From Obrimoposthia wandeli (lineage: Eukaryota), in contig CDROCS010001382.1 in assembly GCA_977020255.1 (NCBI GenBank), positions 372,001 to 436,000 of the forward strand: a stretch of 64,000 bases of DNA, written 5' to 3'. This document shows, piece by piece, positions 13,641 through 61,530 of this stretch (position 1 is its first letter; every line of letters begins with the position of its first letter). The translations under genes were made by a program, and so were the position numbers. The notes below the pieces were generated by a model that did not search any database, was not told where the DNA came from, and saw only the letters and a program-made list of their open reading frames with translations.

Positions 13641-13879
13641 AGAAAAAGCAATATTAAAGAAAAATATACTACTTTCAAGTAAAATCAGCATTTTCTATTA
13701 AAATGTATTGATTGGATTGAGAGTTTTGAATGAATCTCATTGGATTTATACTACTTTGAAAATAGTATTTAATGAAGCAGGATTTATTTAATAACTCCCC
13801 TTTATATAATAATATCGAAAATGGTAAGATTTTTTGATTTATTTTGATTATTTTTGATTATTTTTGATTATTTTTAGAA

Positions 13880-16800
13880 CTGCTACATGAACAAGGAATT
13901 ATGTTTTGAAGTTATGCACGTGGATTGCCGAAGAAGGATGGAGGAGTATTTTAAGAAAAAATTAAAATAAAAAAAAATTGAATATGCCCAATCTGCCAAT
14001 TAAGTGACAAAGTAGACGGGGTCAGTTTCTGTGATAGGCATCGGGACCATTTAGTGCACTTCCAGAAAATTGAGAAATTGACGATTTTCCGAAAATGCCC
14101 GCAAAGCAGTATGTCTTTCTATGGGCAATCTACTCGGGCTCCTATTACCGAATCGACATCAGCTGCTCCTGCTCCTGCTTCTCCATTAGCTGATGGTATG
14201 CCTGTGGAGGTATCTACTTCGTTAAGTACTAGCGTCGGTGGTTCCGGCCCACCTATGCCTAGTTTAGTGGCGGTGTCTACACCATTAGGTAGCACCGTCG
14301 GTGGTTTCGGCCCACCTGTGTCTAGTTTAGCGGCGGTGTCTACATCCGCCGGTGTTAGGAAGTGGAATATGCCGTTAGTTGGAGGAGCGTTAGGGAAGCA
14401 GGGAATGATCGGGAATGTAGTCAAGAAGTGGGGATTGAATGGAGTATATTGCTCGCTTTCATTGGATGTAGGAAATAAGGATTTGGTGAATATTATAGTT
14501 CCTCGGGATCTTCTGGATGCCTTAAGAGAAGTAGTAGATCAGCTGTAAAATTCAGTTTGGGGCTAAGGTACAGTTCTTGAATGGGACTGATACGAAGCAA
14601 TGGGTTGTCTCCAATAGAGCAATCCTTTTTTCTCCATCATTTCTTAAAGATGGATCTGCGTTACTGACTTCGAAACTAGAGCAGTATTCAGAGCGCGGTC
14701 GTAACTGATATTGTGGATAAGTTACTAGAGATTTACTTACAGTCACCAAGACTAGTGAAATTAATTACATGCAATGGTATTTGTAAATTCCTTTTCCGGA
14801 GGTATGGTTAATGCGGTAATTAATGTTTGAAATATAGGGAATAATTTATGTTTCATATTTAGTATTTTGGCTATTTGAAACGTAATTTATTCCCTAGAAA
14901 TAGACATAGACCGCAAGCGTATGAGCCTTACTTGTCTGAGCTAAATTATGATGAAAGTGATATGCCTATGAAATTAGGGAAAATTCCGCGCTTTGAGAGG
15001 GAAAACTCCGAACTTTCCATCAATGTGTTCACGTACAATCACATAGGAAATTTACCACTAGGAACGGACATTTATAAATATTCATAAACTGATGTGATTT
15101 ACCGAAGCAAGAATTCAGGAGGCCAGCCCATAAATCTCATTCTTTTGGAGGATAAGGATAGGTTTCACTATGTTGCAGTTCCTGATTTGAATAGGCTTTT
15201 AAATGTGCATCGAAGTTTTTCAGCTATTATTCAATGCAAGTAGTGCCATAAGTGTTTACATGGTTTTAGGCATACCGAATCATTTAATAAGCACGTCCCA
15301 CTGTGCACTGGAAATATTGAAAGTACTACGCTGTATACCATGCCTGAGGAGAAACATATAGAGTTTAATGATTTTTTCGAAAGTTATATTTCTCCTCCTC
15401 ATGTCATATATGCTGATTTTGAGGTGGTGCTTACCCCTCATAGGATTCACCATCAGCAGCATCTCCCAATAGCGGCAGGTATGCTGTTATCGGTAACAGG
15501 ACAATTACCCGCCGGACATTTACCCGCCGGACAATTACCCCCCGGACATTTACCCGCCGGACAATTACCCGCCGGACAATTACCCGACTAGGACAAATAC
15601 CCGCCGGACAAATACCCGCCGGACAATTACCCGACTAGGACAATTACCCGCCGGACAATTACCCCCCAAAAAATACAGGGCGAGTTTATGCACTTTTAAT
15701 ATAAACAATAAATTAAAATTTTTTACAAAGAGGGGTAATTTAATTGTATTTATTTATTTAGATTAATTAAATTAGTAAAAAGTTATTAATAAGTGGGTAT
15801 AAAAACCTAAAAATTAAAAAAGGAAAAAAGTTAAATAAGGATAAACTAAAAAGGGAGGTATTAACATGGTAAAAAGTTGTATTACTGGCGTCTAAATATA
15901 CATGAGTCATACTAGACCAATTCCATTATCATATGTTAGTATATGTCATTTAATTTTGTAACACTTTAAAGTTTTTACCATGTTAATACCTCCCTTTTAG
16001 TTTATCCTTATTTAACTTTTTTCCTTTTTTAATTTTTAGGTTTTTATACCCCCTTATTAATAACTTTTTACTAATTTAATTAATCTAAATAAATAAATAC
16101 AATTAAATTACCCCTCTTCGTAAAAAATTTTAATTTATTGTTTATATTAAAAGTGCATCAACTCGCCCTGTATTTTTTGGGGGTAATTGTCCGGCGGGTA
16201 ATTGTCCTAGTCGGGTAATTGTCCGGCGGGTATTTGTCCGGCGGGTATTTGTCCTAGTCGGGTAATTGTCCGGCGGGTAGTTGTCCGGCGGGTAAATGTC
16301 CCGGGGGGTAATTGTCCGGCGGGTAAATGTCCGGCGGGTAATTGTCCTAGAACCGCTGTTATCATCAATCAGGGCTGCTCCAATGCAAAATTACTCATTT
16401 TTCACCGGAGAAAATTGTGTAGTAGATTTTCATAGGAATATCGAAACAATTGCAAAGGAGACTGTTCTTCCGTGGTACAATCAGCATACACAAGCAATTA
16501 TGCAGCAGCGAACACCGGTGCAGGAAGCTAGTTACAATGCTGCAATTACTTGTTATCTCTGCAAGAAACGATGCATTAGAAAGGTTAGGGATCACGATCA
16601 TATAAACGATCATTCTCAGGTGCTACTCACTCTACGTGCAATTTATCCAGCCGGATAAGTCACGTTCTCCCAGTCGTTTTCCATAACCTTAGAGGATACA
16701 ACATGCACCATATTCTGAAGCATGCGTTGAGCAAATTCCCGCATTGGTTCATTGGTGTCATTACCCAAACTTACAGTCAAAATCATTGATTCGCTACAGT

Positions 16801-38100: not shown

Positions 38101-39778
38101 TTATCCATTTGATTTATAGTATATATTGTTGGTTCAGTTGATTTTTGAACTATTATTTCTTCTTTATATCTTTCTAAATCGGGGTATTGTGCAGATTCTG
38201 TATTCTCTTTATTTTTATTGTCTACCATCTTCTGTAAATTTTTTTTCTCGCATTTCGTTCGATAATGCTTTCACTGTATTTTGATGATGGTTAAATATAA
38301 GAAATTTTGCTAAAAATAGAAAACATCCCAAAATTAGTTTCCATTTTAATCCACCAACTTTATAAATGTAATATGTAGATAAAATTTGACTCAAAAGGAT
38401 CTTAAAGCATATAAGTAGTGCATATATTCCTACAAGTCCAGAAAATGCTTGACCAAAAATTAAAAATTTTCCCATATTTTTGATATTGTATTTTGTGTAT
38501 CTTTTATAAAATGATTTGGAGAAAGTAATAAATCCTAATCAGGACGGCCAATTCCGCCTGGTACTGATCTTTCAATAATTTGTGTTAAAATTCGTGATCT
38601 AATTTGAGGAAATAAAATTTATTTTCTTAATTTATCTATGTCTTCTTGTATGTATATGCCTTTTGTATTTAGTTCATTGTCTGATTTTATTTCTATGTCG
38701 TTATTGAGGTTGGTTAATTGTAATTTTAATGGTTGAGCAACTATGTCTCTCCTTGAGAGTGATATCCAAATATCTTTTGAGATTTGATAATGAGGTGCCA
38801 TTATGTTTGAGCAATTCATTTCCTTTATACTGAATGTATTAAAAAGTATTATTCTACAAATAATGAATGATTTTTGTATGAAATTGGTAATTCTTTAGTG
38901 CATTTATTATGATTTCATATATTAACTATTACTTTTTTACATTGATAAGTATATAGCACTTATCCCATTACTCTTCCAAAATTACCATCAGCTAGCGGTA
39001 ATAATGGTGTTATTAATTCTGGATTTGTAGCAATAATTGCCAATTTTGTTTTCAAATTTTTTTGGTTTAATTTACAGTCATTCATTATTGTTTCTCTATA
39101 AATTGCTTCTATTGTCATTAATCCTTTGTGATAAAAATAATCTAATTTATTATTAAAATAATCGTAATTTTTTATGTTAAATTTTGTTGGTGTCGTTTTT
39201 GCATTATATATTTTTTCTTTACTTAAATATATTCCTTTATAATTAGTTGTATAAATAGAGTGTCCACATCGGGATTCCTCTTTCTTTTTAATAAATCGCA
39301 TTCCAGAACCTTGTTCTGTTGACATTAAAATAGTTGGGGTTGATGTTTTTTGAATTTTTCTTGTCCTATATTTTTTATGTATATCTTTTGGCACTCTTTG
39401 ATCAAGTTCCGAGTCATCTTTAAATCTTTGACCTTGAATTATTTGAAAATTTTCAGATTTAAGGAGTATTAATTTACATTGGTCTGTTTTTAACTTATAA
39501 TATAAAATTGAGGATCCTGTATTGCAATGATCTATATTTGCTTCGCAAAATGGCATAGTTACCATATTATTTGTAGATGGGTCAAATGTTGCCTTGAACG
39601 TTCTGAGTTCTACCTCAAAGTTTTTTATAACGACTAAGCCACTTTGTTTGACTCCCATCACAACGTATGTACCTGTTGTACATGCACCGTCAGATTTTAT
39701 TGTTCCTACTACTGTAATCATTTGTTGTATAATTTTATTTTTTACTGCTCGTACTTTAATTTCTCTATCTATTCTTAG
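35135..39778 (-). mobile_element. Gypsy-type retroelement A with a glycoprotein (env-like) gene directly upstream of PR-RT-RH-IN; no gag or LTR visible
   Basis: Env-like 39778-38215, PR 38228-37818 (KALIDTGS), RT 37300-36500 ([19 protein letters not shown]), RNase H (TDASGYALGAVL, ERECLAI), integrase 35800-35135 (HLSTKKT..RLKLKYYW, VAMDVMGP). Contains frameshifts. Confidence 0.92.
38215..39778 (-). pseudogene. Chuvirus-like/herpes gB-like (class III) envelope glycoprotein with C-terminal TM region, 5'-truncated
   Basis: GTIKSDGACTTG; RCGHSIYTTNYKGIYL; YFNNKLDYFY; DCKLN..NLKTKLAI..TNPE; GNFGRVMG; GIY..EDI..LR..ILFP; TM FLIFGQAFSGLVGIY...YYIYKVGGLKWKLILG. Confidence 0.8.
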
Positions 39779-42240
39779 TGTCACGTTTCTGGAGTGGAAG
39801 ACGGCAATGTTTTGCAGCGACATCGTGAAGTTCTTCCCTTGCAGTATGGCTCACAAGCTCATCAGAACAGTTAAGCATTCTGAAAGCATGAACCACCGCT
39901 TGGACGGCGTAGTCGTCAAGGGCAGAAGTTAGGCCAAGGCCACATTGTTTGTTGGATGCATATAGATAGGAGTTACTGGTTGTTTTCGGCAGATGAACTA
40001 TACTTTTGATAACTCCTCTAATACGAATATCATAGCCACCTTGAGACAATTTTCGACTATCTTCAGAACGCTCGTAAGAGTGCAACAGTGCAAGTCGTAT
40101 CCATGCCAGTCTCAGAGTGAATGTAAGCCTAGAGATAATAAAAGTTTTTTAGGTGTCGATCATTTGCCAAGGCCGAAGTGTGCTTTTGGCAATCTTCTCC
40201 ATGTCGAAAACGGCCGTATCGAGAAGTTCTTTAGGATCTTGTCTGTGAGAATGACCAAATTCTACACCTAAGTAGCGATAAGGCGGGTCCAAAACTGTCG
40301 GCATCTCGCTTCCACTGATCATAATTCGGTACACCGGACTCACAAAACGCGGCTGGGGCAGGATATTACGCCTGCTGCAGTAGAGAATACTGGGGTTCGA
40401 AGTTTTCTCAGGAGAGGCTGGATCAGCAGGGAGTCGCAAGTATCCGCACTTTCCAGGGTTAAATTTGAGATTTGACCAGGTTGCCATCTCTTCAGCTTTG
40501 TCAACCATAGCTTATAGGACATCATTGGTGCTGGCAAATAAGGCCAAATCATTGGCATAGGACAGTACATCGATCCTCTTACCATGTAATTGAATGTCTG
40601 TATCTGGAATTCTAGATATTTCAGAAAGGACCGGGTAACCTGAAAAAAAAGTAACATTGAAAGTGGGCAACCCTGTCTAACTCCACGACTGATCGGGATT
40701 GCTCCAGTTGTAAGTAGTCCACAGAAGTATCTGGAATCACATTCAGAGTAGAGTGACTTGATCAGCTTACATGAGTTATCACTTATCCCCATTCGTCGAT
40801 ATGTCAAGGAAGCCAATGTGGACCTTCAAAATGAAGTTGTCTCGTTTCCGACTCTCGATGATGCTGTTCAGGATGAATGTATGCTCAGTGCACTCCTCGA
40901 AATTCCCAGCACGTTTCTGGAGAGGATGCAGCAGCTGGTTCTTGGTAATTCATTCTTGTATTTGCCAGGCAAGACATGACGTGAATACCCTGTAGCATGT
41001 ATTCAGCATGGCAATAGGACGCCATGAAGAAACCTGGTCGTACTTACCATATTTGTTTGGTTTGGGTATCATCAATGTCCTAAACTGCCGCCAGGTTGTT
41101 GGCATGATTATATCAGTCATAATCTTGTTGAATAAGCTGGTGAGTAGAGCACAGCTTCGGTCGCAGTATCGTATGTCTGAGTAGAGTATATTGTCCTCTC
41201 CGGGTGAGAAGTCAGATATACTCTTCAGAGTCATGCAACCTCGGTAGGAGTCATGTTTCCAAAGCAGAATTCCGGACCGGGCTTAATATTGGGACAGCAG
41301 TTCCAATCAGTGGCGGCCAGAGCTGGAGACTTCGATTCACAATATTGTGTAAGATTCTCCAGAAATGGATATGTTTCAGCAGATGTGGAATCCAGGATCT
41401 TGTCAATGACTGACTTCCGATTATGCCAGTACAACTGTGGAAGACTGTTAATGTCATCGTCATCTCTAGGGATAACATATGGTATAAAGAGAGACTTCTC
41501 CTTTCTGTGTCTGGGACGGTAGATGTGAGATAGAATCCCATTAGAGAGCTCCTCAATATCAGCATCGACACTGTTAGTCAGCAAGTCCTTTGCGATTTCG
41601 ATCCAGAATGCTTTACATAACAAAGGTTTCTGCTGTTCAACAACAATTTTCCTTTTAACAGGAGCAAGTTTTTTGAGATTCAACTCAATCAGCTTCTTCC
41701 TGATATTCCGGACGTCTATATTAAGCAGAGGTTACTTACTGGATAACCGTGATGCAATGCCACATATAACGGGACCACTGTCGCCATGGGTAGTGCGGCA
41801 CATCTGGAAGTCGTCACATATAGAAGAACTAAATGTAACATTGTTGGCCCGTGTAAAGATATCGATGTATTGAGTGAGTTTCTCTCCCAAACACTTAATA
41901 TCCAATTGCGGGGTCAGGCCGGTGTAGTTGAAGACGCAAGAGATCAATCTAATCCTGTTGTAAGTGAACAGGATCCAGCCTCTACCAGATATTTTGTGCG
42001 GGGCAATGACCAAATCGATGTCTTTGAACATTTTGAAAGTAATGTTCTCGTCAACGAATGATTCATCGCCCAGAAGTAAGCACCTGGTGGCGACAGGAGA
42101 GAGCACAAGTCCCCACTCGTTGTTGATTGTTCTGTTAAGCAGCACCTCCACATTTTTGGGCGAGAAGAAAACAGTACTCCTAATTTCCTCAATGCCGTCG
42201 GTGCTGCTCACTCAAGCGAAGACTGTCCAGAATCACAGCC
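39779..42240 (-). mobile_element. Non-LTR retrotransposon (R2/NeSL-like RT), decayed and 3'-truncated
   Basis: IPKPNK...SSWRPIAMLNTCYRVFT; GVRQGCPLSMLLF; SYANDL (YADD equivalent); NLKFNPGKC; PYRYLGV; LRPWQMID. No endonuclease domain is retained. Confidence 0.88.
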
Positions 42241-42339: not shown

Positions 42340-43790
42340 TTACTGTGGCCATATAAGTTTCTTGTCGAAAATCACACCTACCACACCGTATAAACCACAC
42401 AAGGTTTTTCCAAGAGATTGAGAATACGCATTTCGAACAGAAAAATAGAAATAGATAAGAATTACACACCTGATGCAAAAATTGGTGTGAGACGATATGA
42501 AACAGTTACAAGAATAGGTCAACGATAGAATGATGGATCGTGCCGTGGAGGAACAAAAAAATGTGCGTGGTACCAAAGTAACATCCTTAATAATGGACAT
42601 GACTTACTAGATTGAATTAAAAACATGGACAGCCAGTTTTGATAAAACTACAAAAAGTATGATGAAGTTTCCGGAGAATAACAGTTACATCTTGTGATAC
42701 AGGCGAATCCACAATTGTATATCAAGTAGACCCAAAACAATTTTCGTTGATATTTTTGAAAGAAATCAAATTTAATAAAATAAAAGGTTTCCTGTATAAT
42801 AAAGGAGGAGAAGGATTCCATAACAAAACAGGACCAATTCCTACGACGCCAACACCTACGCTGTTAATGGCAACATCAACAGAAGAAGGATTGATATTTA
42901 TCAAAATAGGAAATAAAGCGCGATGCGGAATGACTGTTAGTACTACAAACTATCCTGGAATAGTTTTGTCAAAAGAATCAATAGCGATGACTGGAACCAA
43001 ACTAAAATCTAGTGATATGCAGCTACACATGTATTTTAATAATAAAATTGATTTCTATTATCATAAAGGATTGATTCAAATGGAACAGTTATATCAAATG
43101 ATGGTTGAGAGAGATTGCCAATTAAATAAGGAGATCATAAGAACTAAGTTGGCACTAGCTATTACAAATCCAGACACGGTAGCCCCATTATTGCCTCTAG
43201 ACGAAGGAGTATTTGCTAAAACTATGGGAGAAGTAATTTATACGTACAGGTCTAAGAAAAGTGCTGGTACAATTGAGAAAAACGACTTGATGTACAAGTG
43301 AATTACTTGTAACGTATAACTCAAAACCACTTTTTGTAGAACCAATAACAAGGATGATACTTCCAAAGGACACTCCAACTAAAGAGATAAGTTGCTCTAA
43401 TATAATGGCAGTTGAATACCAATTATCGAGAGACTTATGGATAACGTTGCCTGACCGTAAGTAAACAAACACTCCAACTAAGATTTTTAAAGTGCAGGTT
43501 TATATAATGAGGAAGATCTAAAAGTGGCCTGGAACGAAATAATGTTTCCAGTAAGAACATCCAGAGTACTTAAGGAAATGGTACATTGTACATTACCACC
43601 AGGAGCTACATATGCGAATTTTGATATGATATTGTCGGCAAGTCATTTCAAAGAAGCGGCACACCATACTCGTAGAAAATGTGAGGAAAATTCCTTGTAT
43701 TAGGACAATTATTTTCAGGTATCATATTTATTTATGTTATAATAAAATTTGTACATTAAATTATAACTCAAGTGTTGTCAGAAATTCAAA
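42340..43790 (+). pseudogene. Chuvirus-like/gB-like envelope glycoprotein of element B
   Basis: DGSCRGGT; RCGMTVSTTNYPGIVL; YFNNKIDFYY; DCQLNKEIIRTKLALAITNPD; FAKTMGEVIYTY; GLYNEEDL...IMFP; TM FLVLGQLFSGIIFIY. Clearly homologous to 38215-39778. Confidence 0.8.
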
Positions 43791-44570
43791 CAGGAAAAGC
43801 ACCTAATTTTGACAATAGTGACCAGATTCCTGAAGAAAAAAATAATCAAAATAAACTGTGTTGTTATTTAAATAGTCGAATTGAAGATATATTCGAAGTA
43901 ATGCGAGAAATAAACGAATGTGACAAACAATATCGAGAAGTAACTTTCGAAGATCCAAGACTTAAAAAATGGGCAAAAAAGGGATTTTTTGCAACGAAAA
44001 AGGATGGTAAATATGTAATTAAATGCCACGAGTGCAAGAAAGAACGAATTATTTACAGATATACTCTTGAGCTACCTAAGAAATGTTTAAATTGCGAATT
44101 TTGTAATTAAAAAAACAAAAAGAAGCAAAAAGAACGAATAACAGAATGTATAGTCGAATATCAAATCACACTTAAAGAGATTTTGGCTCAATGTCATTCA
44201 TGAGAAGATTATATCCAAAAGAAGTAGACAGAATCAGAGAATTGGTAGAATTAAAAATAAAAACAACGCTAAATGGATAGAGATAAATTTTAAAATTATT
44301 ACGAGATAAAATTGACAGTACAATTGAACCAAAGCAGAAAGAGTACATACATGAACTAGAATACATGCTAGAAGATCCAGAATGCGCAGTATACATGGTC
44401 AACAAAGTAGAAGTTGCCTTTTTACCGTGTGGACATGTGAGAACATGTCGGATATGTGCAAACGAAATGGTAACATGTCCGATTTGTAGAACAATAATAG
44501 ATCGACAATTGAGAAATATCAGATTTCACTATCCAAACAAAGAAATTAGACCGATAAAATGTAACAATTC
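43772..44570 (+). pseudogene. IAP-like (degenerate BIR, linker, C3HC4 RING) between env and protease
   Basis: KWAKKGFF...VIKCHEC (BIR-like); KEYIHELEYMLEDPECAV...VEVAFLPCGHVRTCRIC...CPICRTII..LRNIRFH. Confidence 0.78.
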
Positions 44571-44963
44571 GATAAATACTTTATACCACATGGGAAATAT
44601 ACATGGAGCACAGCGACCAGCAGCTATCATTAGGATGAACAATTTAAAAATAAAAGCCTTAATAGACACAGGCACAGTAGCATTGATAGTGAGTGAAGAT
44701 TATTTGACAGAGGAACAGAATCAACAATGTCAGAATCAGATAAATTCTTGGTATCGGTCAACGGAAACCCTGTAAACGTGACGGGAATATTACCATGTAC
44801 ATTTGTAATATGATGTAATACGACCACTATACCAGTTAGAATCATGAGAGAGTGTCATGAACTAACCATTTTAGGAATGGGTCAACTGTCACAACTCAAA
44901 GGAATAAGTATCAGAAGTGTAAAGTGTCGGTTCTAAAACAATAGCACACAAAGCCCCCCCCCC

Positions 44964-47700
44964 AATTAGTGCAATCTCTAAAGTTTAACATGTCATTATT
45001 AGTAAAAACCATAGGAACATTAATACTATTTACCCAAAAATCTGCCACTTCACCATTTATCAACTCAGTTAATTTATCTACAAAGTTTTTAGCACACTGC
45101 AGACCGTAATAACTGAAATATTGTATTGAATTATTAGTGTTGTTTTTCAAAATCATCCCTATAGATATTGGTTTATGAATGTGTTTGAAAGTATTATGTG
45201 GTTCGAGTATTGACTCAAAGTCGGCATATACAACAAATGGTGGCGCAATAGATTTAGACCAGTCGGAAAATTGACACTTGATCTCTTTAGGCATTGTAAA
45301 CAAGGTTGTTAAATCTGTATTAATATTACAATGTGCTCTGTGTTTGTCATATGAAATCGTGGTTCGAAATCCAAAAAGACATTTCTCACACCAAAAGAGA
45401 CGCACATTATATTTTTGAGTATTTAAAAGTCTATTCAGGTTTGTAATCCCTGTATAGTGATAATTACCGCTCTGTTCCAACAGCAACAAGTTTACTACTT
45501 TTTCGCACTGTTTAAGACTCGTTCTATAAATAACATTAACATCTGGGTTTTTAAACACTAGATGACTACTATGAGGCTCTACCTTTGTAGGTTTATAGGA
45601 GAATACTGTTATCGCTATATTATTGAGTTTTTTAAACGCCTTGATACCGTCTATCCTCATAGGACCAGGCTCACATATAAGTTCATTTAAATAATCATTA
45701 TAGTTTTCAACTCTTTGTCTGTTTCGATTGAAATCTTTATAGTGTAGGATACTGAGAACAGCGTATTTAAAACACTGATCATCAGTATTATTTACGTTCA
45801 CTATAGATAGTGTTTTAGCAAGCGCAACCGGGGTTTTTATAAATGATGATCCTGCTACGTTTGAAAGTGCGGTAAATTTAAAGGATACCAACAGAATTTT
45901 AAATGCTGACCATCCCGAACTCATATCCTTATAAATTTCAATTTTATTGTTGAGCTCAACTGTTCTTGTAGTGATAAAATCTTGTTCAAAAATATTTGCT
46001 TTACAGCTTACATGCTATGTTTTATGTTGACCCTCGTTATTGACAAATTCGGTTTCAACACCAAACTGTATTTTACAGGGACCAAACACATCTATACTGC
46101 TAGTAAGTTCAGTTAGCATAGTATCGTTAATGTATAGTTTAAGCATGTTTAATCCACTAACATCAAAAACAAGGTTTGATTGAATTGCACCTCCTATTTG
46201 ATTGTTAAAAGTTAATGTATTATCTGAATTAATTGTAACAATATTATCAAAGTCATCATCCGTAATAGTTAGGAGTGAGTCGAAAAAATCATTTTCTGTT
46301 ATAAACTCGTCCTGATCTATAAGTTCATCAATATTATTATTATTTAAGATTTCATTAGGGCTTAAAGGCTCAATAATTTTTACAACTTCAGGATAAGTAT
46401 CAATTTCTACAACACTATCCGGTTCCCACGAGTCTACCACATCAAACTCTTCAGTAAAATTATTAGTTTTTGCTATTTTATTGTTGTCTATTGTTGGTAC
46501 TCTCATTACTTTACGTTTGTATGCTGACTTTTTAGACTTAAAATACGTCAGATGATCCTTATGATCATTATAAAATGTTTGATAGTCAATACAATATAAC
46601 ACATCACAATGTGGACAAATAAAACCGCTTTTAAATTTATAATATTTAAGCATTTCACTATGACATTCTATTCCATGATTAACGTTTGTGCAATACTTGT
46701 ACAATGTACATAAGTTACTTCCTCCACGAAGTTTAGGGTATACATGGATAATAGCCCCCTCATGTAAAACATCACCGATAATAGCTTCCCTTTCAAAGGG
46801 CATGCCATTACGGTTAAAATAAATTTGATCAGTCTCAAAGACTTCATATAATTTATTTGCCAGATCTGTAATTTTCAGACCTGGACTAATATTAATGGGT
46901 TTGCAAGACCCTAATAAATTTGCAAATATTGTTATATCTGCTGGTAGTTTTCTCAATCTACGCAGCTTCTGACGAAATCTTTTACCTTTCCTACCTTCTG
47001 TTTTAAGTTTACTTAAATCAATATTTTGATTTTTTACTTTCTTTAATTGGTTAAAATATTTTTTAAACGGGATATTTTCAAAACCCGAGTATATCTCATT
47101 TACGTTGAAATTTTCTACTGAATTAACAGGTGACCCAACAGGTGTTCCTGGTTTAAAAAGTAAGGGGTAACCTCTTGATTTAATTAACTTATTCTGCGAC
47201 CCCATTCCAGGAGTTAGACTGCCCCGCGTTACTGGGCAGCTATCGCAGTCGGGAGAATAAGATTTTATATCCCTTATATCCCCAAAAAGTTTATATAAAT
47301 GAGTATCATATGGAGAATGAGAATGAGAATGAGAAGATGAAGAAGAAGAAGAAGGAAGTTGAGAGTGAGAAGATTTCTCAAGAGATAAAAAAACTTTTGA
47401 CATTTTCTTCTTTTCATCATCATCATCATATATTGTTGTTGGCATATTCTTCTTTTTCTTCTGCTTTCGGCTTCTTTTCTTAGTAGGAGCATGGTGCGTT
47501 GAAAGCCATGGTGCGATTGATATTGGCAGTGGTGTGACACTCTGTATTGCTAAAATAAATTAAAAATAATAATAATAATAATCAAAATTACCTTTCTTCA
47601 CAGGTGTCGCATCCAAGTCGACATCATCATCATCATCAGCCACTGCAGGCTTCATCGTCCATCTTTTCTTAGCATTATACGCGAAAATAATTTTTGACAT
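44964..47700 (-). pseudogene. PolB N-terminal part (spliced leader exons, ubiquitin-like domain, zinc motif, terminal-protein region, vOTU-like domain, exonuclease I), one in-frame stop, truncated by the TIR
   Basis: ORFs 47445-46015 and 45924-44911 are in the same frame, separated by one TAG. Motifs: SSGW, GSSFIKTP, NNTDDQCFKYAVLSILH, YHYTGI, VVYADFESIL. Leader exon 47700-47592 is flanked by 39-nt and 42-nt GT-AG introns. Confidence 0.9.
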
Positions 47701-48163
47701 CTAAAAAAATAATAATAAAAATAAAATCAAAATACTTACTTTTCGAATTGTGAATGAAATTGATAAATGACACTACACTGATTGTTTATATATGGTTCAC
47801 AATCAGTGTAGTTGCTGCCCTAGATGTACACGTCACACATCACGTGTGTACTTACAAACTAGGAATGCGTAATAAAGACTCTTTATTCCCTAGTTGCTAC
47901 ACACGTGATCATAAAGGTTAATTACGGTCAATCAATTATGAATATTTTCATAACCGATATTCACACCGTTAAACTTTAAATTTTTTAAAATAATTAACAC
48001 CATTAATTTTCTCTTAATTAGTAGATTTTAAATCTATTTTTTAATTTATCAAAACTCAAAAAAAAAAAAAAATTTAATTTCGATGGGACAGCTATTTATA
48101 AAACAAATACGATTTTGAATACAAATTTTATTACCAATCAACACAAATAAAAAGGTTTGACAT

Positions 48164-48487
48164 TTATATAGTTTGATCATACAACCATAAGATACATAGT
48201 GGACCGCAATTAGTAGTCAGTGGGTTTTGAGAACGAATTTTGTTGTAATATACATGTTTTCCTTGAGACTCTACATGCTTGATAAGTTTTCCCGGATAGT
48301 ATACTCCAAGAGGGTCATACACATGTACAGAATTCCGTCTCACGAATAACGCAATCCAGTGTTCTCCAGGAAGATTTGAGGTATGTGTATTGACAATATA
48401 TCCCCCAGGCGTTAATGTTGGGATTTTTTCCAACGGGTATACACCCTTAAATCGCGGTCCGAGCAGCAAACTAGTTATTTCATTCAC
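48164..48487 (-). CDS. Polinton adenain-like cysteine protease
   Basis: FKGVYP...YIVNTH...GEHWIAL...YDPLG...QNP.T.NCGPLCILWL (His, Asp, Gln, Cys). Confidence 0.9.
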   Translation of the reverse strand: MNEITSLLLGPRFKGVYPLEKIPTLTPGGYIVNTHTSNLPGEHWIALFVRRNSVHVYDPLGVYYPGKLIKHVESQGKHVYYNKIRSQNPLTTNCGPLCILWLYDQTI

Positions 48488-48571
48488 CTGAACAGTACTT
48501 TGGATTAATAAAATCTTAAAACATAAATTAAAAACTCACTTCATACAATCACACGTCGGCCTTTAGTTATT

Positions 48572-48982
48572 TCAAACTCGTTTTCTTCGTTTGTTTATAC
48601 TAGATGCTTTCTTTCTACCACTACCCTCTTGCTTTTTAGTTTCGGGTTCAACCGTTTGTGCTGCTTCACTTGCTTTACGTTTACGTCGATTTTTAATAAT
48701 TTTAACAACTGTACCAAAAGCTTCCTTAGCCTCCGGTATGGCTCCGGCAACTTCCCCTAGTGCATGTTGTTTAAGCATTGGTAACACAGATTTGTTGTTC
48801 ATTATTACATCTTGAACTGTTTTAACTCCAACACGGCCTAATCTTTTCAGTATAGGGAATGCTAACCGTCCCAATGTTTTCAACCATCCCGAACCGTACT
48901 GTTTACCTACAAAATATGGTAATTCACCACCTTGTTGAGGTCCACTAAATGTCTCAATTATATTCATAACTGTAATGGACAA
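48572..48982 (-). CDS. Polinton core/structural protein with QxGxG motifs, C-terminus cut by a deletion
   Basis: QQGGELPYF.GKQYGSGWLKTLGRLAFPILK; KQEGSG. The P3 homologue continues past KRRKRV. Confidence 0.75.
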   Translation of the reverse strand: MSITVMNIIETFSGPQQGGELPYFVGKQYGSGWLKTLGRLAFPILKRLGRVGVKTVQDVIMNNKSVLPMLKQHALGEVAGAIPEAKEAFGTVVKIIKNRRKRKASEAAQTVEPETKKQEGSGRKKASSINKRRKRV

Positions 48983-49003
48983 CTATTTTTGAATACAGAT
49001 TGT

Positions 49004-50173
49004 TTATACCTGATCTATACAACGGACATGTATGGTAAGGGATACTTTTGCATTGTTGGAAAAACTTATTGGAACACCTGCATCGTTTCTAATATTAATT
49101 TCAATGTTTGAGATTACATTTGATGCTAAAGGGATATACATGGGTCTGTATATTGCGATATTAACCGTGTCTCCTGGTGCTTTATTTTTATCTAACCATA
49201 TAGATTTTAATAAGGGTATCATTTGACCTCCAACGTTTACAGGTTCACACAGACTAGAATACAAGTACATGTGATCAAACTCGTAATTTAATCGAGGTAG
49301 TCCAGACCCGTTGCCCGTAAATCGTGATTTATCTAACCCTAATACATACCATAAACGTTGATCAAATCCAATATGCTCAATTCCATTCTTTAATACAAAT
49401 TTTATTAGCTTATCATTATCATCAATATAAAATCTTTTAAATATGACGTCGCATTTAGATTTAATGTATGCTACTAATGCATTTACATTATTATTATTTA
49501 AATCTTCTGTAAATACAATTTTCTTGTTGTATGAACCGGTTTTATAATGCATATATTGTAAATTATGTGCACTGCAATCAGGTCTGATAGACGTTGATCC
49601 AAGTAAAACTCCTTTATCATCAGACTCGAAACCTTCTGAAGTTAATGTATTGAAAATGAATCCTAATTCATTTTTAGCGTCAGCATCCATCTTGATATAG
49701 AATTTTTTGTTGTTGACGGATTTTATTAGTACAACATTATCCTTTTTATCAATACCTACACCAACTGTGCTTAAGGAAATAGAAAGCTTTGCAATCTTAT
49801 CTTTAGACGTGACGGTGAGTTTTGATATTTTATTAATTGTCTTTTTAATAACTTTTGGTTCTGATTTATCACCATGCAATTGCGGTTCTTTCTTTTCTAC
49901 TTCTACTTGAGTATGAATTACTGATAAAGATATTTGATCAGTCTGTTGATTGGAGAATTTAATAGAATAATTAATTTCACTGCCCTTATTTAAAATAACA
50001 GGAGTGTTTGTGTACGTAAATTCAGTTAATGCCGCCTCCCATTTACCATTTAACGTAATTGGATTCTCCCAATCTACAGTGAATAAGGAAGCCATATTAT
50101 TAGGTTGAGTTTTCGGACAACTATTACTCGGTAAAATCATATAGAAGTCTCTATCTGGCTTGCTTTGATCCAT
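49004..50173 (-). CDS. Polinton minor capsid (penton) protein
   Basis: FYMILPSNS...QPNN.ASLF...ITLNGKWEAALTEF; YLYSSLCEP..VG..IPLLK...YIPL...IEINIRND.G. Confidence 0.9.
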   Translation of the reverse strand: MDQSKPDRDFYMILPSNSCPKTQPNNMASLFTVDWENPITLNGKWEAALTEFTYTNTPVILNKGSEINYSIKFSNQQTDQISLSVIHTQVEVEKKEPQLHGDKSEPKVIKKTINKISKLTVTSKDKIAKLSISLSTVGVGIDKKDNVVLIKSVNNKKFYIKMDADAKNELGFIFNTLTSEGFESDDKGVLLGSTSIRPDCSAHNLQYMHYKTGSYNKKIVFTEDLNNNNVNALVAYIKSKCDVIFKRFYIDDNDKLIKFVLKNGIEHIGFDQRLWYVLGLDKSRFTGNGSGLPRLNYEFDHMYLYSSLCEPVNVGGQMIPLLKSIWLDKNKAPGDTVNIAIYRPMYIPLASNVISNIEINIRNDAGVPISFSNNAKVSLTIHVRCIDQV

Positions 50174-51171
50174 GTTGATTCAGAATATCCATGCCACTTT
50201 AGGAGATATTGTTTATTCTTACCACGGCCTTTAGATTTTACGACTTCTTGGATACGGAAAAGTGTAGGTTTATCAATTACTTGTAGTTCAGGTTCATAAA
50301 ATTTCCCTGTTATTACATTACAGTCATCATCAACTATAGAGTACATTACAGGATTTGCACGTTTGTCTATTTTCTCTATCCTAAACACTTCATCACTCCA
50401 ATTCTGATCAAAGTTTTTAATAAAGGGGCTACCACTAAACTTTGATATCCGAACATAATCACCAGTCTTATGTTTGGGTTTATTAACTTTATCGACTTGA
50501 TTACGACTCAACCAAATTTCCATTGCATTTTTATCATTAATATCGACAGGTCTCAATCCGTCTAAACCTCTATGCTTACTGTGATTGTATGAAGTCATAA
50601 CTTTTGGTAAAACGTCAACCCATCTTTTATTGCCTTGTGCAATAAAATGTCTTTTTAATCGATCTCTCAATGTTCTATTAAACCTTTCAACTAGGGCAGC
50701 TTTGAATTGTGAAACTACAGAGTAATGTTCAATATTTAATTTTTTAAATAAACTACCTACATTTTTGTTGTAAAACTCTTTACCCTTATCAGTTTGCACA
50801 TGTATGGGGACAGTTTTATCAGTCATTATACTTAGAGCAGCCTCTATATCCTTACCTGATTTAGATTTTACAGGTAATGCACGCGCATACCTTGTAAACA
50901 CGTCAATACATGTTAAAATATACTTGTTACCATCATTTATACTTGCATATGGTATCATTTCCATCAAATCGGCCTGCCATAAATCGTTAGGACCGCTTGT
51001 TCTGTATGCTCGAGTCGGGAACTTCCGCTTCATTGGCTTGTTTAGACTGTATGCTAGCTGATTGCTCAGCCATTTCTGAGTTTTCTTTTGACTCGATTGA
51101 CTTTTTAATGATAGTTTGCCAATGCCGCTGTACCCAGCTGGGTTTTCGGGATCGTACCATATCGTTTCCAT
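50137..51171 (-). CDS. Polinton retroviral-like (RVE) integrase with C-terminal chromodomain, intact ORF
   Basis: WYDPENPAG; WQADL...YILTCIDVFTRYA; QTDKGKEF; KAALVERFNRTL; GDYVRISK; YLLKWHGY. Confidence 0.95.
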   Translation of the reverse strand: METIWYDPENPAGYSGIGKLSLKSQSSQKKTQKWLSNQLAYSLNKPMKRKFPTRAYRTSGPNDLWQADLMEMIPYASINDGNKYILTCIDVFTRYARALPVKSKSGKDIEAALSIMTDKTVPIHVQTDKGKEFYNKNVGSLFKKLNIEHYSVVSQFKAALVERFNRTLRDRLKRHFIAQGNKRWVDVLPKVMTSYNHSKHRGLDGLRPVDINDKNAMEIWLSRNQVDKVNKPKHKTGDYVRISKFSGSPFIKNFDQNWSDEVFRIEKIDKRANPVMYSIVDDDCNVITGKFYEPELQVIDKPTLFRIQEVVKSKGRGKNKQYLLKWHGYSESTWIKASQIETSI

Positions 51172-51222
51172 TACAACAAGTGAATTTAAAATCGATGTTT
51201 GGTATGTTATTACCCATTTTGT

Positions 51223-51552
51223 TTATGAGTTTATCAATTTTGCAATCAAAGGAGATACTAAAGTAGCAATTATAGGTATTAATGCACCGATAAAACCACC
51301 TTTTTGTTTTAGAATTACTCTACGTTTACCAGTTTTACTTTTAGTATTCACTAAATCAAGTAAAGCTTTTTGATGTTTTCTAAGGTTATGTTTATGATTA
51401 CCGATTTTTACAGTACCTTTTGTAATATTAAACAAGACTTCAACCAACTTATCAATAACAAAGGGTGGAAATGACTTGAGTATACGTTGTCTATATATGC
51501 TTGGAGCCTTGATTAAAGCCTGAAAGTAGGGAAGTATAGATTTTGATAACAT
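51223..51552 (-). CDS. Polinton small core protein with KGG site and amphipathic C-terminal helix
   Basis: LVEVLFNITKG...KRRVILKQKGGFIGALIPIIATLVSPLIAKLINS. Confidence 0.75.
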   Translation of the reverse strand: MLSKSILPYFQALIKAPSIYRQRILKSFPPFVIDKLVEVLFNITKGTVKIGNHKHNLRKHQKALLDLVNTKSKTGKRRVILKQKGGFIGALIPIIATLVSPLIAKLINS

Positions 51553-51583
51553 GTTTAATGAATTAAACTATTTGCAATATTGT

Positions 51584-51904
51584 TTATAGTTTAATCCATT
51601 TACCAACTAGTTTATTTACACGCTTTTTATCCGACTTCTTAACCGACTTTCCAACTGCTTTCTTAACAGGTTTCTTCTTTAATGGTTTCTTTTTTACAGG
51701 TTTTCTCTTTACTGTCTTTACCGATTTCTTTAATGATTCATCGACTACTTTACGCTGATGAAGCACTGATTTAATAAGATTTTTAATATGAGCATTCTTC
51801 TTTAACATCAATTTGTTATCATTAGCGTGTAATTTATCACCCGGTCTCCATTTAGGTCCAACTCCACTAGGCATTGTTTCTTTCATAAATGACATGATTA
51901 ACAA
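51584..51904 (-). CDS. Lysine-rich basic protein (possible DNA-condensing core protein)
   Basis: KKPVKKKPLKKKPVKK repeats; lies between the ATPase and the core protein. Confidence 0.6.
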   Translation of the reverse strand: MLIMSFMKETMPSGVGPKWRPGDKLHANDNKLMLKKNAHIKNLIKSVLHQRKVVDESLKKSVKTVKRKPVKKKPLKKKPVKKAVGKSVKKSDKKRVNKLVGKWIKL

Positions 51905-52548
51905 GTAGATAGGCTTTTCTTTTGTTTATATACAAAATCATTATTGAAAATATCGGTTCTCACGCGTAAATCGTCTGGACATTCCTGTGTAAAATCTAAA
52001 AACAAGTATCCATGAGGGTTAGTTGTTGCATCTTGAAATGCGTCAATCAAATATTGCTTATTACAAGGGAAAGCTTGACGGGCAACAAAGTCGATAACCG
52101 TTTGATCTCGCGGATTTTTAAATAATACTAGATAATGTACATTTAAATTCCGAGTACGGTGTTGACCGCCTTAATGAAAGAGATTTTGAGTGATAAAAAT
52201 CACTGTTACATTTGTATGTCTAGCTATTTTGGTAAACAGGTTATTAAAACCCGACTCTTTATTTGCTTCATCAAACAAATCATCAATTACAATGACATCT
52301 CCTGAATTTAACCTCTCAGACCATTTATTATCAAAACCATTAATAAAATGAATACCCTTCAATTTACCTAATTCTGTTCGTGTTAGACCAGATTCACCTA
52401 CACCTCCGTAATGCCAGTATATTCTACTAAACTTTTGATTAAACATGTTTTTATTTTGAAGTAATTTAGTTACAAAATGTGTTTTCCCACTCCCACTAGG
52501 TCCTACTGTTTGGTAAACCGCGTTATTTTTAAGTTTTATCATCATCAA
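51898..52548 (-). pseudogene. A32-like packaging ATPase with one in-frame stop
   Basis: VGPSGSGKTHFV; IVIDDL; VIFITQNLFH*GGQHRTRNLNVHYLVLFKNPRD...DLRVRTDIF. Confidence 0.92.
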
Positions 52549-52575
52549 TAATAATAAATCAAAAGAAACGATTGT

Positions 52576-52842
52576 TTATATACGTTTTATTAATATATAC
52601 AACAACAGAGAATTAAAAATTGATGTAGAAAAGGTTATATACATCATGTTTGAACGATTAATTTGAACAAATTTTTCAAAATCCTTAATCCGTTTGATAT
52701 CTCTATAGACATGGGTGCAAACAATTTCCTTTATATTATTACGAGAAAGTCCATCAAAACTAGAAAAGTATTGAACTCCATTTATTGTTCCGTTTATAAT
52801 TTCCTCGACTGCATCATCAACTAATTTATCGTTTTCATCCAT
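52576..52842 (-). CDS. Hypothetical Polinton accessory protein
   Basis: 88-aa ORF co-oriented between IAP and ATPase; no motif recognised. Confidence 0.45.
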   Translation of the reverse strand: MDENDKLVDDAVEEIINGTINGVQYFSSFDGLSRNNIKEIVCTHVYRDIKRIKDFEKFVQINRSNMMYITFSTSIFNSLLLYILIKRI

Positions 52843-52860
52843 TTATATAAATCATAAATT

Positions 52861-53760
52861 TCAATTGTTTATACCATGAAATTTTACATTTCTTACTCTC
52901 CGTTCGATCAGACATCTGCATACTGGACATGAATGTAACATTCTAGAACATGATATACATGTATTTACATGTCCACAAGGGAGAAATACTACTTCAATAT
53001 GATTATTTAAACATACTACACATTCGGGTACCTTTAAAATGTATGAAAGTATATTTATATATTGTTTCTCAGGTTTCATTTCTAAATTAGATAAATCACA
53101 AAGCAATTCAAATAGTGAATTGTATTCACCATATCGCATCATTTTATATTTTAAAACAGATTTTATTCTATCTTTTGTGAAAAACTTTTTCAAATATCTG
53201 ATTTGGTTTGTATCCATCAACATATCGAATTTCTCGATAGTTAAAGGATATTCAATTATACAATCTGTTTCGATTTTCTCAATAACATTAGCCTCATTAT
53301 AGGGTTCTAAACTGTTTGAATAGCATATATCAGGTAATTTTATATCAATATCTGATACATGTACTTTTCCAATCAATGGTGATGTATCAAAATCGATTTT
53401 CTTGTTCATAGTTTCAATTATTGGTACATTTGAAACATTTAACTTTAAAAGAAATGGACATGTAGGAAAAAATTTCATATGTTGCTTCATTGGTTTAAGA
53501 TACCATTCCCATTCGGATAACGCACCTTGACAGTATATACATTTTACTTTATCGGTTGAATCATCATCATGTTTATAAAATCCGGCTTTAGCTAAATCAT
53601 TTACAGATTGTTTCCCTTTAAAATTTATAATTAATGATCTTAATCTTTCACTTTCATGTCTATATTTCCAGTGTAAAACTTTCATTCTAGAATAACCTAC
53701 TTTTCGTCTAACTAAAACATCATCAACAGTTGTATAATGAAGTATATAATCAACTAGCAT
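52861..53760 (-). CDS. Inhibitor of apoptosis (single BIR + RING), intact ORF
   Basis: LAKAGFY...VKCIYCQGALSEW...PMKQHMKFFPTCPF; CVVC...VVFLPCGHVNTCISC...CPVCR. Confidence 0.93.
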   Translation of the reverse strand: MLVDYILHYTTVDDVLVRRKVGYSRMKVLHWKYRHESERLRSLIINFKGKQSVNDLAKAGFYKHDDDSTDKVKCIYCQGALSEWEWYLKPMKQHMKFFPTCPFLLKLNVSNVPIIETMNKKIDFDTSPLIGKVHVSDIDIKLPDICYSNSLEPYNEANVIEKIETDCIIEYPLTIEKFDMLMDTNQIRYLKKFFTKDRIKSVLKYKMMRYGEYNSLFELLCDLSNLEMKPEKQYINILSYILKVPECVVCLNNHIEVVFLPCGHVNTCISCSRMLHSCPVCRCLIERRVRNVKFHGINN

Positions 53761-53801
53761 TTCAAATCATGTAAGAATAAAATTCAACTAAAATTTATTG
53801 T

Positions 53802-54293
53802 TTATATCAAAAGTAAAATATCAGTTATTATCAAAGTCACATCAAAGTGATAATCCAAATCCTTGAGACCGAGTATGACCACTTTCCCGCTTGCAAATAT
53901 GTTGACGCACAGAGGATTGTGTTTTGTAAACCTTAAAGCAGGAAACAACTCAGGTTCGAACATGCATGCAGCTCCACACTTTTGAGACAACTTGTATAGG
54001 TTCACCTTCTTACCTAAATCAACAGTAACCGTTACGGATTGAATACGATCAATCTTTATTCTAAATGGACACTTGAGCAAAGTTGTAGTAATAGGTTTCT
54101 TGCAACCCATTATCCTGCATGCTCCTAATAATAACTAACTAACTAACTAACATAAAAACATACCTGAACGGAAGATTATAAGGGTATAATCCTTACACCT
54201 GTGCACGTACTGACATGGTTTCCCGGTTTTGAAGGGTAAGTGACTGATGTCTCCTTTAACTTTACCTTTATAATTAATATTTGCAAGATTCAT
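53802..54293 (-). CDS. TBP-like protein, two exons (39-nt intron at 54163-54125)
   Basis: Splicing gives LIIFRSG|ACRIMGCK. The second repeat is IQSVTVTVDLG...MFEPELFPALRF...VNIFASGKVVILGLK. Confidence 0.82.
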
Positions 54294-54416
54294 GATTGAA
54301 TTGATGGAAATAACCCAATCTATATATAAAATTTTTAAGCTAAAGATTATCCAATCAGAATCGAGTATGATATATATATAAGCTACCACTTTTGGTATAG
54401 AATTCATTATTTTGAT

Positions 54417-55067
54417 ATGAACTCTAAACAAACTAAATCTCTTAAGTTCGAGAAGCCACCACCAACAAGGCTTACAGACACAGATGTGGATACCGATGAT
54501 GATGATGTAGTTTTTATATCAAAACCAAAGAAGCAAACTATGACAAGCAACAACCATAAACAAACCAAGACTATCAAGATTGAGAAGCAAGCAACAAATG
54601 AGGATCTCTTTATTGATGATATAGTCTCTACACCCAAACATAAGAAACCGTTCAACAATAAACCATCAGATGTAATATTTGAGTCTAATGATTTGAAGTA
54701 TACCAAGCCGGTTATGTTTTATAACTGGCAAATTAATTTTTTGAAGACTCCAATCATATATGGATTCATGTTTCCGGTGGCTCTGAATAAGTCAAAATAC
54801 GATTTCAAGATACATAGATTAAATCCGTCAGATATTGATGATCTTAACAAAACCTTTGAGTCGATGCATCTCAACATCATAGTTGGGAATCATATAATAA
54901 TTCGAGCTGATCCTAATCTTTTCAAGCGAGATCACGACTTTAATGTTGACAATATGGGAACTGGACTCAAGTGGATGATCGTCATTTCAATACAGGGATA
55001 CAAAATCAACTGTACAGGTCTTCATAAACCAATCTGGAAAATTACTGATGGACAAGTTCGCTTATAA
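54417..55067 (+). CDS. Hypothetical Polinton protein (216 aa), possibly OB-fold/SSB-like
   Basis: Intact ORF opposite to the core genes; acidic and basic N-terminus; C-terminal beta-strand pattern VISIQGY...PIWKI. Confidence 0.55.
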   Translation: MNSKQTKSLKFEKPPPTRLTDTDVDTDDDDVVFISKPKKQTMTSNNHKQTKTIKIEKQATNEDLFIDDIVSTPKHKKPFNNKPSDVIFESNDLKYTKPVMFYNWQINFLKTPIIYGFMFPVALNKSKYDFKIHRLNPSDIDDLNKTFESMHLNIIVGNHIIIRADPNLFKRDHDFNVDNMGTGLKWMIVISIQGYKINCTGLHKPIWKITDGQVRL

Positions 55068-55254
55068 TTGTACTAATATATATTTATCGATGTTACTTTG
55101 CTTTCTTCAATATAGACTCCTACTATAAACAATAACGTTTCTTAAGATAAAAACTGCGATAGCTGTCCGGTTATGCGGGGCAGTCTAACTCCTGGAATGA
55201 GGTCGCAGTACTAAGTAAATTAAATAGTTGCAAATAAAAATTTGGGACGGTCAA

Positions 55255-55425
55255 TTGTGTTTAATTTCAAAATTTTAATTTTTAATTTTCATATTTAATT
55301 TGAATTAAAATTTAAATTTTTTAATTTCCATATTTAATTTTTTAATTTTTAAATTTTTTTAAATTTTAAGTTTTAATTTTTAAAATTTTAATTTTTAAAT
55401 TTTAAAATTTTGAATTTTTTAAACC
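55255..55425. repeat. AT-rich low-complexity tandem repeat ((T)nAA units) near the Polinton end
   Basis: ttttaatttttaattttcatatttaattt... array. Confidence 0.7.
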
Positions 55426-55496
55426 ATATACAAATGTTACAAAATATTAACCTACATAATCGTAAGTGACGCATAAGACCAAACAAATTTCGAGAC

Positions 55497-55666
55497 GTAA
55501 AGTGTCGGTTCTAAAACAATAGCACACAAAGCCCCCCCCCCCCGAACAAGGCACAAGGAAGAAAGCACATCTGTATGACTAAACAAATTTCAGATGTGCT
55601 TTGTTCCTTGTGCCTTGTTCGGGGGGGGGGGCTTTGTGTGCTATTGTTTTAGAACCGACACTTTAC
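55497..55666. repeat. 170-bp near-perfect palindrome at the right end of P2
   Basis: Arms of about 76 bp (TIR, poly-C/G, gaacaaggcacaaggaa, aaagcacatctg) around a 17-nt loop. Confidence 0.93.
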
Positions 55667-56499
55667 ACTTCTAGTATCGATTTACAAGATCCAAGATTGA
55701 AGGATAGCACGTCAAACAGACAGATAAATCAAATAGACGTGATCATAAAGAATCCAATAACAATCGGTAAAAGATCACAATTTGTCATCCAAGGTCACAC
55801 CTTGTCGGAAGATAAAGGACCAATCATATTCGAACCATCACGAAATTTTATAGAAAAATACGGATTGCCAATCGTAAGTACAGTATGTCTGATCGAGAAT
55901 CACAAAATACCAGTTAGACTAATGAACACAATTACATCCTGTTATATAGAGGAATGAGGTTGGGAAAGATAGAACAATTAGAGAATTCCACAGTATGTGC
56001 TATGAAATAGGATAAGAATGTAAATGATTCCGAAGAAATAATAATCAAATCAGAAAGACTGACAACAAAAGAAAAGAAACAACTACTTGATCTAATACAT
56101 AAATTTCCAAAAGTAATAGCTAAAAATCCGTATGACATAGGAGAAACCCCTGTCATAAAACACACAATATCACTGACAGAAAACAAAGTAGTCAGAAGAA
56201 GACCATATCGAGTACCATTACAGCTACAAGATAAATTAAAACTCAGATAGAATATATGTCTAAAACAGGAGTAATTAGACCTAGTTTTTTACCATTTTCT
56301 GCAGCAGTAGTGTTAGTAAAAACATAAAGATGGAAAAATGAGATTATGTATAGATTTCAGAGAATTGAACAAGATCACAAGAAAATACGTATACCCATTA
56401 CCCAGAAACGAAGAGATGCTTGATAAATTAGGTAATTCAGACTATTTTACGACATTGGATTTGCAAAGTGGCTACTGGCAAATTGAAATAAAGGAAGAA

Positions 56500-61112: not shown

Positions 61113-61530
61113 ATGAGTGAGATAATTCCAGATATGCTATATCTAGGGAACGTAGAAGACGCAACAGACGAAAACAAACTGTTAGAAAAAAGAAAAACAT
61201 ATGTTTTCAATGGGACAATGTATCACGAATCTCGGTACAAGACAATCAGAGCTATGACATAAAGAATAATAGACTCAATAGAAGCTGACTCTTTCGAGGG
61301 GTTCGAGAAACAAACGAGATAATCTACAACGAACTTCTAAACCAAGGAAAAATATTGGTATATTGCCAGAAAGAAATTTCAAAATCAGCTACCTCGGTAA
61401 TGGCATATATTATAAAGAGTATACAAATGCAGGTGCTGGAAGCATTGACATATCTACAAGAGAGACGAAGTATCGTGAACCTAAACATAATATTTTTGGG
61501 ACAATTGTCAAAATATCAAATCTTGTTACA
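61113..61530 (+). pseudogene. Dual-specificity phosphatase-like gene in the 3' region of element B
   Basis: MSEIIPDMLYLGNVEDATDENKL...GKILVYCQKEISKSATSVMAYII...EALTYLQERRSIVNLNIIFLGQL; frameshifted. Confidence 0.85.

Follow-up and report, generated by a model that had tools for sequence, protein, structure and literature searches.

A probable ubiquitin-like module ending in LRGG in the polymerase gene of a defective Polinton from Obrimoposthia wandeli

The polymerase (pPolB) of Polintons and adintoviruses is described as a TP-vOTU-EXO-PALM chain (10.1101/2024.03.18.585575; PMC8502044). Krupovic and colleagues inferred that the vOTU protease cuts between the terminal protein (TP) and vOTU (10.1101/2024.03.18.585575), and the TP label used here follows the same source. 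In the available parts of the published text, pPolB has two N-terminal domains (D1, D2), no cleavage motif is named, and the vOTU cut is so far a hypothesis with no site assigned. Ubiquitin-type fusions are described elsewhere. In cytopathic pestiviruses, host hydrolases cut ubiquitin and thereby generate the authentic NS3 N-terminus (PMC8310069). Natural ubiquitin-ribosomal protein fusions are processed on translation, and natural and engineered ubiquitin fusions are reviewed in PMC9703124. Among Mavericks, nematode WASP and KRMA proteins carry ubiquitin-like domains (UBLs), and the main text of 10.1101/2022.07.12.499685 mentions neither cleavage nor a diglycine for them.

A UBL in a Polinton PolB was not reported in the open literature searched. 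A term search for ubiquitin gave two mentions in PMC8502044 (OTU and UCH) and a single one in PMC12721341 (vOTU). It gave no mention in PMC10748475, 10.1101/2024.03.25.586562 and 10.64898/2026.10.13.758929, and PMC4092849 held no relevant content.

The locus compared here with these systems lies in a window of 64,000 nt from Obrimoposthia wandeli (GCA_977020255.1, contig CDROCS010001382.1, positions 372,001-436,000 of the forward strand). The features of the window are collected in Table 1.

Table 1. Features of the PolB locus and of related sequences, in window coordinates.
Feature	Position	Strand	Remarks
Polinton/Maverick deletion derivative	44913..55672	.	Ends in 51-nt inverted repeats; AGTATC (6 bp) duplicated at the target
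Predicted first coding exon of PolB	47592..47700	-	109 nt from ATG; phase fits long ORF
Predicted T-rich introns around the 109-nt exon	47739-47701 (39 nt), 47591-47550 (42 nt)	-	Inferred from sequence
Leader ahead of UBL	46939..47549	-	Basic, acidic and Ser/His-rich stretches; coding-like
71-nt GC-rich motif in leader	47179..47249	-	Second copy in non-coding DNA, 55153-55223 (+)
Probable ubiquitin-like (beta-grasp) domain	46720..46938	-	73 aa, ends LRGG (46731-46720)
Cys/His zinc-binding domain, YY..F.CP.C..F...H..H	46510..46719	-	No curated Pfam family
QIGG, candidate adenain-type site upstream of TP	46189..46200	-	GG in relatives compared with shuffles
Terminal-protein (TP) region	45859..46188	-	Relatives' TP HMM E 3e-10; interrupted by TAG
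TP/vOTU junction	45847..45858	-	VAGS here; LRG[SG]S-like in many relatives
vOTU-like cysteine protease domain	45406..45846	-	Cys 45774-45772, His 45459-45457
Zinc finger and exonuclease start (YADFE)	44964..45405	-	Remainder of PolB deleted
BIR-RING (IAP-type E3 ligase) gene	52861..53760	-	BIR E 1.9e-13, RING E 6.2e-11
P1, other Polinton of the window	13821..14065	+	ATG 13821, 54-nt intron, zinc domain directly; broken downstream

The element is inserted in LTR-retrotransposon sequence. Its terminal arms (44913-44963 and 55622-55672) are 51 nt long and 100% complementary, with AG..CT ends and AGTATC on both sides. A Pfam scan of its ORFs gave an integrase (rve, E 2.8e-12, plus a weak chromo match), a packaging ATPase (Pox_A32, E 2.6e-6) and an adenain candidate (Peptidase_C5, E 0.0078, weak and below the cut-off). 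No capsid family was found among the ORFs scanned, in an element that has deleted part of its sequence. A search at E<=1e-10 gave 52 relatives for the protein-primed PolB, and several of them match PF03175; of PolB itself, the 5' half alone is left in this copy. The left terminal repeat adjoins the middle of PolB, and the element is therefore a non-autonomous Polinton deletion derivative; the polymerase palm is missing and the copy itself is defective.

The right end of the element (55497-55672) is a 176-nt foldback with an extra copy of the terminal repeat, and the left end keeps 51 nt only. The BIR-RING gene and a TBP-like gene occupy 52861-54134 (-), and ORFs that resemble them by eye only lie near P1 at 8115-8423 and 9120-9431 (+). 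Envelope-like ORFs (Pfam Monjiviricetes_fusion, E 1e-15 and 1e-18) were observed in the LTR-retrotransposon regions 38960-39850 (-) and 42666-43301 (+), with a RING ORF (44287-44775) and a DSPc phosphatase fragment (61289-61876) in the same nest. Exons at 23908-30482 (-) may be those of a host cohesin SA/STAG gene, which they resemble.

The initial annotation had described a ubiquitin-like segment of 73 residues ending in LRGG inside the PolB ORF, and its coding status was borne out. The run from DITIFANL to PKLRGG (46938-46720, minus strand) is open over 73 codons. Its codon score, with four regions elsewhere in the element as training set, was +0.21 bits/codon in its own frame and -0.01 to -1.12 in the other five. 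The 276-codon frame of leader and UBL was kept open in 0/20000 shuffles. L[RK]GG occurs once in all six frames of the 64-kb window, at the end of this segment, and LRGG is expected 0.004 times by the composition of the 844-residue frame. The segment is real coding sequence. As had been claimed, the zinc motif, the TP region and the vOTU Cys and His lie downstream in its frame. The frame is shared, but it is not a single ORF: the TP region, which separates UBL and vOTU, contains an in-frame TAG (46017-46015), and the terminal repeat of the element truncates the gene at about 44963.

The predicted introns suggest that the PolB gene is probably spliced at its 5' end. If the 42-nt intron is removed, 240 codons precede the UBL, which is then internal and not N-terminal; if the ORF is left unspliced, its first ATG lies 169 codons ahead of the UBL. 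The leader matched no NCBIfam or Pfam family. Excision of the UBL by a T-rich intron was considered and rejected, as the minus strand of the element yielded only two such introns and the UBL lies downstream of both; GTAACT directly after GG is a possible splice donor by its sequence. Short T-rich spliceosomal introns appear at the PolB 5' end in both Polintons, at 47739-47550 (-) and 13824-13877 (+).

The leader also contains a 71-nt motif that is possibly a cis-acting RNA or DNA signal. Its second copy stands after the ORF 54417-55067, and both copies are in the sense of the nearest gene. The motif folds as a closed multi-stem in which several differences between the copies keep pairs via G-U, with weak folding z values of -1.1 and -1.6. 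A known ribozyme was rejected, since no such Rfam family was among 10 weak rows at E<=5, and the motif pattern had no copy in GTDB genomes.

The alignment to ubiquitin over its whole length, made by eye in the initial annotation, was not recovered by sequence searches. The segment matched no Pfam family at E<=1 and none in NCBIfam, and phmmer against PDB gave three rows at E<=10, none of them a ubiquitin-like chain. Structural comparison was more suggestive. A single-sequence AlphaFold2 model (pLDDT 45) had the order strand, strand, helix, strand, helix, strand, and LRGG came after the last predicted strand, at the diglycine position of a type I ubiquitin-like modifier. With this model, 41 of the 45 Foldseek rows shown were ubiquitin, UBL, PB1 or RA domains (best E 0.047, none at E<=0.001), and in structural alignments of 76-82 columns the ubiquitin chains were 17-21% identical to the segment. 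The best VIA-align match had Z 4.7 and rmsd 4.0 over 72 residues, and the top eight rows were PB1, RBD, Ufm1, MoaD and Mth1743 chains, which we take to be beta-grasp members. The pLDDT, Foldseek E and Z values are all under the trust levels of these tools.

In the ESM Atlas, the segment resembled a ubiquitin/Rad60 cluster at 0.91 (166/256 features), where shuffled proteins reach 0.9 in 4-10/100, and the top three rows were unnamed clusters of 74-82 aa at 0.92-0.93. The UBL together with the zinc domain resembled Ub-L40, Ub-AN1 and Ub-S27a at 0.75-0.79, as weak look-alikes; both Atlas comparisons count as one source. In a second model of 341 residues, the UBL had a pLDDT of about 37-61 and beta-grasp rows reached Z 2.3-2.7, under unrelated folds. 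Foldseek and VIA gave no significant match for this longer model, in searches that barely probed the zinc domain. A predicted vOTU-UBL complex scored 0.02 with the alignment left unused, and it counts for neither side. As judged from the fold comparisons together, the segment probably has a beta-grasp fold.

The distribution of the UBL among relatives was narrow. With UBL and zinc domain as query, a full HMMER search across 1.84 billion representatives returned 10 hits, nine on the zinc domain (query residues 78-157) and one repetitive artefact; the UBL part (residues 5-77) was covered by 0/10. A TP-vOTU-exonuclease search found the 52 PolB relatives among 3531 candidates. The UBL scored in 0/62 of these proteins (best E 1.7), and the ubiquitin Pfam family was found in 0/28 of those scanned. 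Of the 28, nine were the hits on the zinc domain, 17 were PolBs chosen for a long N-terminus, and two were additional. Word-based searches, in which blanks are weak evidence, gave 0/64 candidates for longer proteins with UBL and zinc domain and 0/3602 with a zinc alignment. In GTDB genomes, 0/66 pattern matches were confirmed as relatives, as expected for an animal element. Conservation across the family, raised for LRGG in the initial annotation, fails on the more distant relatives (0/62) and on P1. The UBL is known from one decayed copy and is in none of the relatives checked; it therefore looks like a lineage-specific add-on.

The zinc domain marks where this addition was made. One related Polinton PolB lineage (P0054-P0063, P0003) has it N-terminally, as a single unit or as up to three in tandem. 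About 50 residues of the domain had a pLDDT of 76-94 in the model. Among 10 relatives with the domain, six have a Met 1-12 residues ahead of it, three begin inside a partial repeat or shortly ahead of one, and the last carries a C2H2 leader of 300 residues that ends in QRGS. These are gene-caller starts, which would miss upstream exons. One of the six, P0058, has QEGG just ahead of the domain. N-termini of the PolB set are modular, with C2H2 fingers, Rho_N or the zinc domain. As had been noted earlier, the P1 PolB has the zinc domain without a UBL (13878-14065 (+), HMM E 5e-6), and the domain begins Asn-Cys (N-C-Y...). The position of LRGG is where these relatives and P1 start their protein with Met. 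By this comparison of sequences, the leader-UBL looks like a lineage-specific addition with LRGG at the ancestral protein start.

Including the LRGG-S before the zinc domain, the N-terminal half of PolB has three Gly motifs, and the other two are QIGG before TP and the TP/vOTU junction. A GG 100-175 aa upstream of the TP/vOTU junction was found in 10/35 relatives long enough, compared with 10% in shuffles. The catalytic Cys is present in 50/52 relatives and the His in 52/52, and the element has both. The junction residue is present in 51/52 relatives and is Gly in 48/51; the junction reads [RK]G in 27 of the 51, RG[GS][ST] in 17 and LRGGS in four. It resembles a ubiquitin tail and so fits an OTU enzyme. 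The motif is a candidate vOTU self-cleavage site, the cut bond being a proposal. The junction of the element itself is VAGS and not LRGG, and its vOTU therefore need not prefer LRGG. In its mu- and pVII-like ORFs, labels that are in part provisional (Adeno_PX E 3e-4 for the mu-like ORF), four GG/GS motifs were found, with Gln at P4 in 4/4.

The diglycine of the UBL is internal, and it therefore needs processing. We favour, at slightly better than even chances, a ubiquitin-fusion-type processing signal in which UBL-LRGG is cut by a host deubiquitinase (DUB) or by vOTU. A leader ending in a diverged UBL would have been fused ahead of the ancestral PolB start in one Polinton lineage, and a deubiquitinase-type protease would cut after LRGG. 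This would free zinc domain-TP-vOTU-polymerase with a nearly ancestral N-terminus (Ser) and release a separate leader-UBL protein, so that two proteins would arise at 1:1 from a single spliced mRNA. The terminal protein would be freed by additional cuts, an adenain-type one at QIGG and one by vOTU at the TP/vOTU junction. The UBL has kept its tail in spite of a body with little resemblance to ubiquitin, and the tail may thus be under selection. Given cleavage, a host DUB and the element's own vOTU appear equally eligible, each somewhat short of an even chance. Adenain, also named as a cutter in the initial annotation, is a doubtful third and the least likely, because the GG/GS motifs of the element have Gln rather than Leu at P4.

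The initial annotation had proposed a cleavage tag that sets the N-terminus of TP-PolB. The tag is still the best reading, with the cut at the start used by relatives, but its predicted product exposes the zinc domain and not TP: the LRGG cut would fall ~175 residues before TP, which has its own QIGG (46200-46189) and junction (45858). A free ubiquitin decoy, as first put forward, is an unlikely product, since a leader of 240 residues would stay attached to the piece that is released.

The UBL might instead be an uncleaved or slowly cleaved degron, or a proteasome or p97 handle, through which PolB abundance is kept low, a role suggested for the UBLs of nematode Maverick cargo; this is unlikely, and it is the alternative that we rate highest. 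Maverick WASP proteases and KRMA kinases have modular N-terminal UBLs of low identity, and a Lys mutant of MSFT-1 acts as if dosage rose (10.1101/2022.07.12.499685). The UFD pathway degrades uncleaved internal ubiquitin fusions (PMC9703124). The UBL here has four Lys, and its strongly diverged body may defeat host DUBs. However, its LRGG is intact and has Ser after it, the kind of site at which DUBs cut, and the predicted cut coincides with the ancestral start. Integral UBLs usually lose the diglycine. A private UBL system, in which vOTU cuts the UBL at LRGG, host E1/E2 and the BIR-RING protein conjugate leader-UBL through its freed diglycine, and vOTU acts as eraser, is the most improbable of the readings. 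If it were true, targets could be host or viral, and the LRG[GS]S mimicry of a ubiquitin tail would be a general processing code of Polinton polymerases.

There may also be no ubiquitin fold at all, with LRGG a short linear protease site of the junction type, or a chance match, and the alignment by eye illusory. The missing HMM match, the low-confidence models and the similarity of YPKLRGGS to the family junction motif YxPLRG[GS]S speak for this; the language-model features and fold searches, which indicate a beta-grasp across all 73 residues, speak against it. A duplicated TP end was rejected as the origin of the UBL, which scored -0.6 bits on the TP profile where the element's own TP scored 28 bits. 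We consider the reading without a ubiquitin fold improbable and rank it just after the degron. Ranked after both, and also improbable, is a recent neutral fusion, in which an upstream leader-UBL gene with a natural LRGG end, like a modifier, came in frame with PolB in this copy or its family. Such an event would agree with the absence of the UBL from every relative, the modular PolB N-termini and the origin of the element as a rearranged deletion derivative. It fits poorly with the join itself, where only three codons lie between GG and the first zinc Cys and include neither a stop nor a spacer, a T-rich intron or an in-frame Met. A PolB deprived of the leader would also lack a start codon ahead of the zinc domain.

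The processing-signal reading would matter in several respects. UBL-LRGG stands in the same polypeptide as vOTU and is thus a candidate substrate close at hand. The TP/vOTU junction, with its likeness to a ubiquitin tail, points to a particular candidate bond throughout the family. If host DUBs cut at LRGG, the element would provide a DNA-virus parallel to the ubiquitin trick of pestiviruses. The weight of the case is limited by a single defective copy and weak fold evidence.

Compared with the descriptions of Polinton/adintovirus pPolB (10.1101/2024.03.18.585575; PMC8502044), the element has the same TP, vOTU Cys and His, and exonuclease start, and the same neighbours (rve-chromo integrase, ATPase and, by a weak match, adenain-like). 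It differs by additions ahead of TP, namely a leader, UBL-LRGG and the zinc domain, and by being a broken and truncated copy. Like the ubiquitin/UBL insertions of pestiviruses (PMC8310069 and PMC13517609), the UBL is an internal unit directly ahead of a replication protein, and the predicted cut falls at the N-terminus of relatives and P1, 1-12 residues before the zinc domain by gene-caller starts. Pestivirus insertions, as described there, are recent host mRNA captures in an RNA virus with cleavage shown, whereas the UBL here belongs to a DNA element with its own OTU-like protease and lacks near identity to host ubiquitin/UBL (17-21% to ubiquitin chains). It shares with the WASP/KRMA UBLs of nematode Mavericks (10.1101/2022.07.12.499685) a modular and diverged UBL on a Maverick-borne protein. 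Those UBLs are N-terminal, on cargo genes and tied to abundance control; the present one is internal, on the core replicase and carries LRGG. The order of UBL-GG and then a zinc-binding domain recalls Ub-L40, Ub-S27a and FUBI-S30, but these are host genes with an N-terminal UBL, and the zinc domain here is Polinton-type and unrelated to theirs by the searches run. Maverick cargo UBLs and ubiquitin processing signals of pestiviruses are known already; the papers searched describe no Polinton PolB polyprotein with a UBL-LRGG unit such as the probable one of this defective copy.
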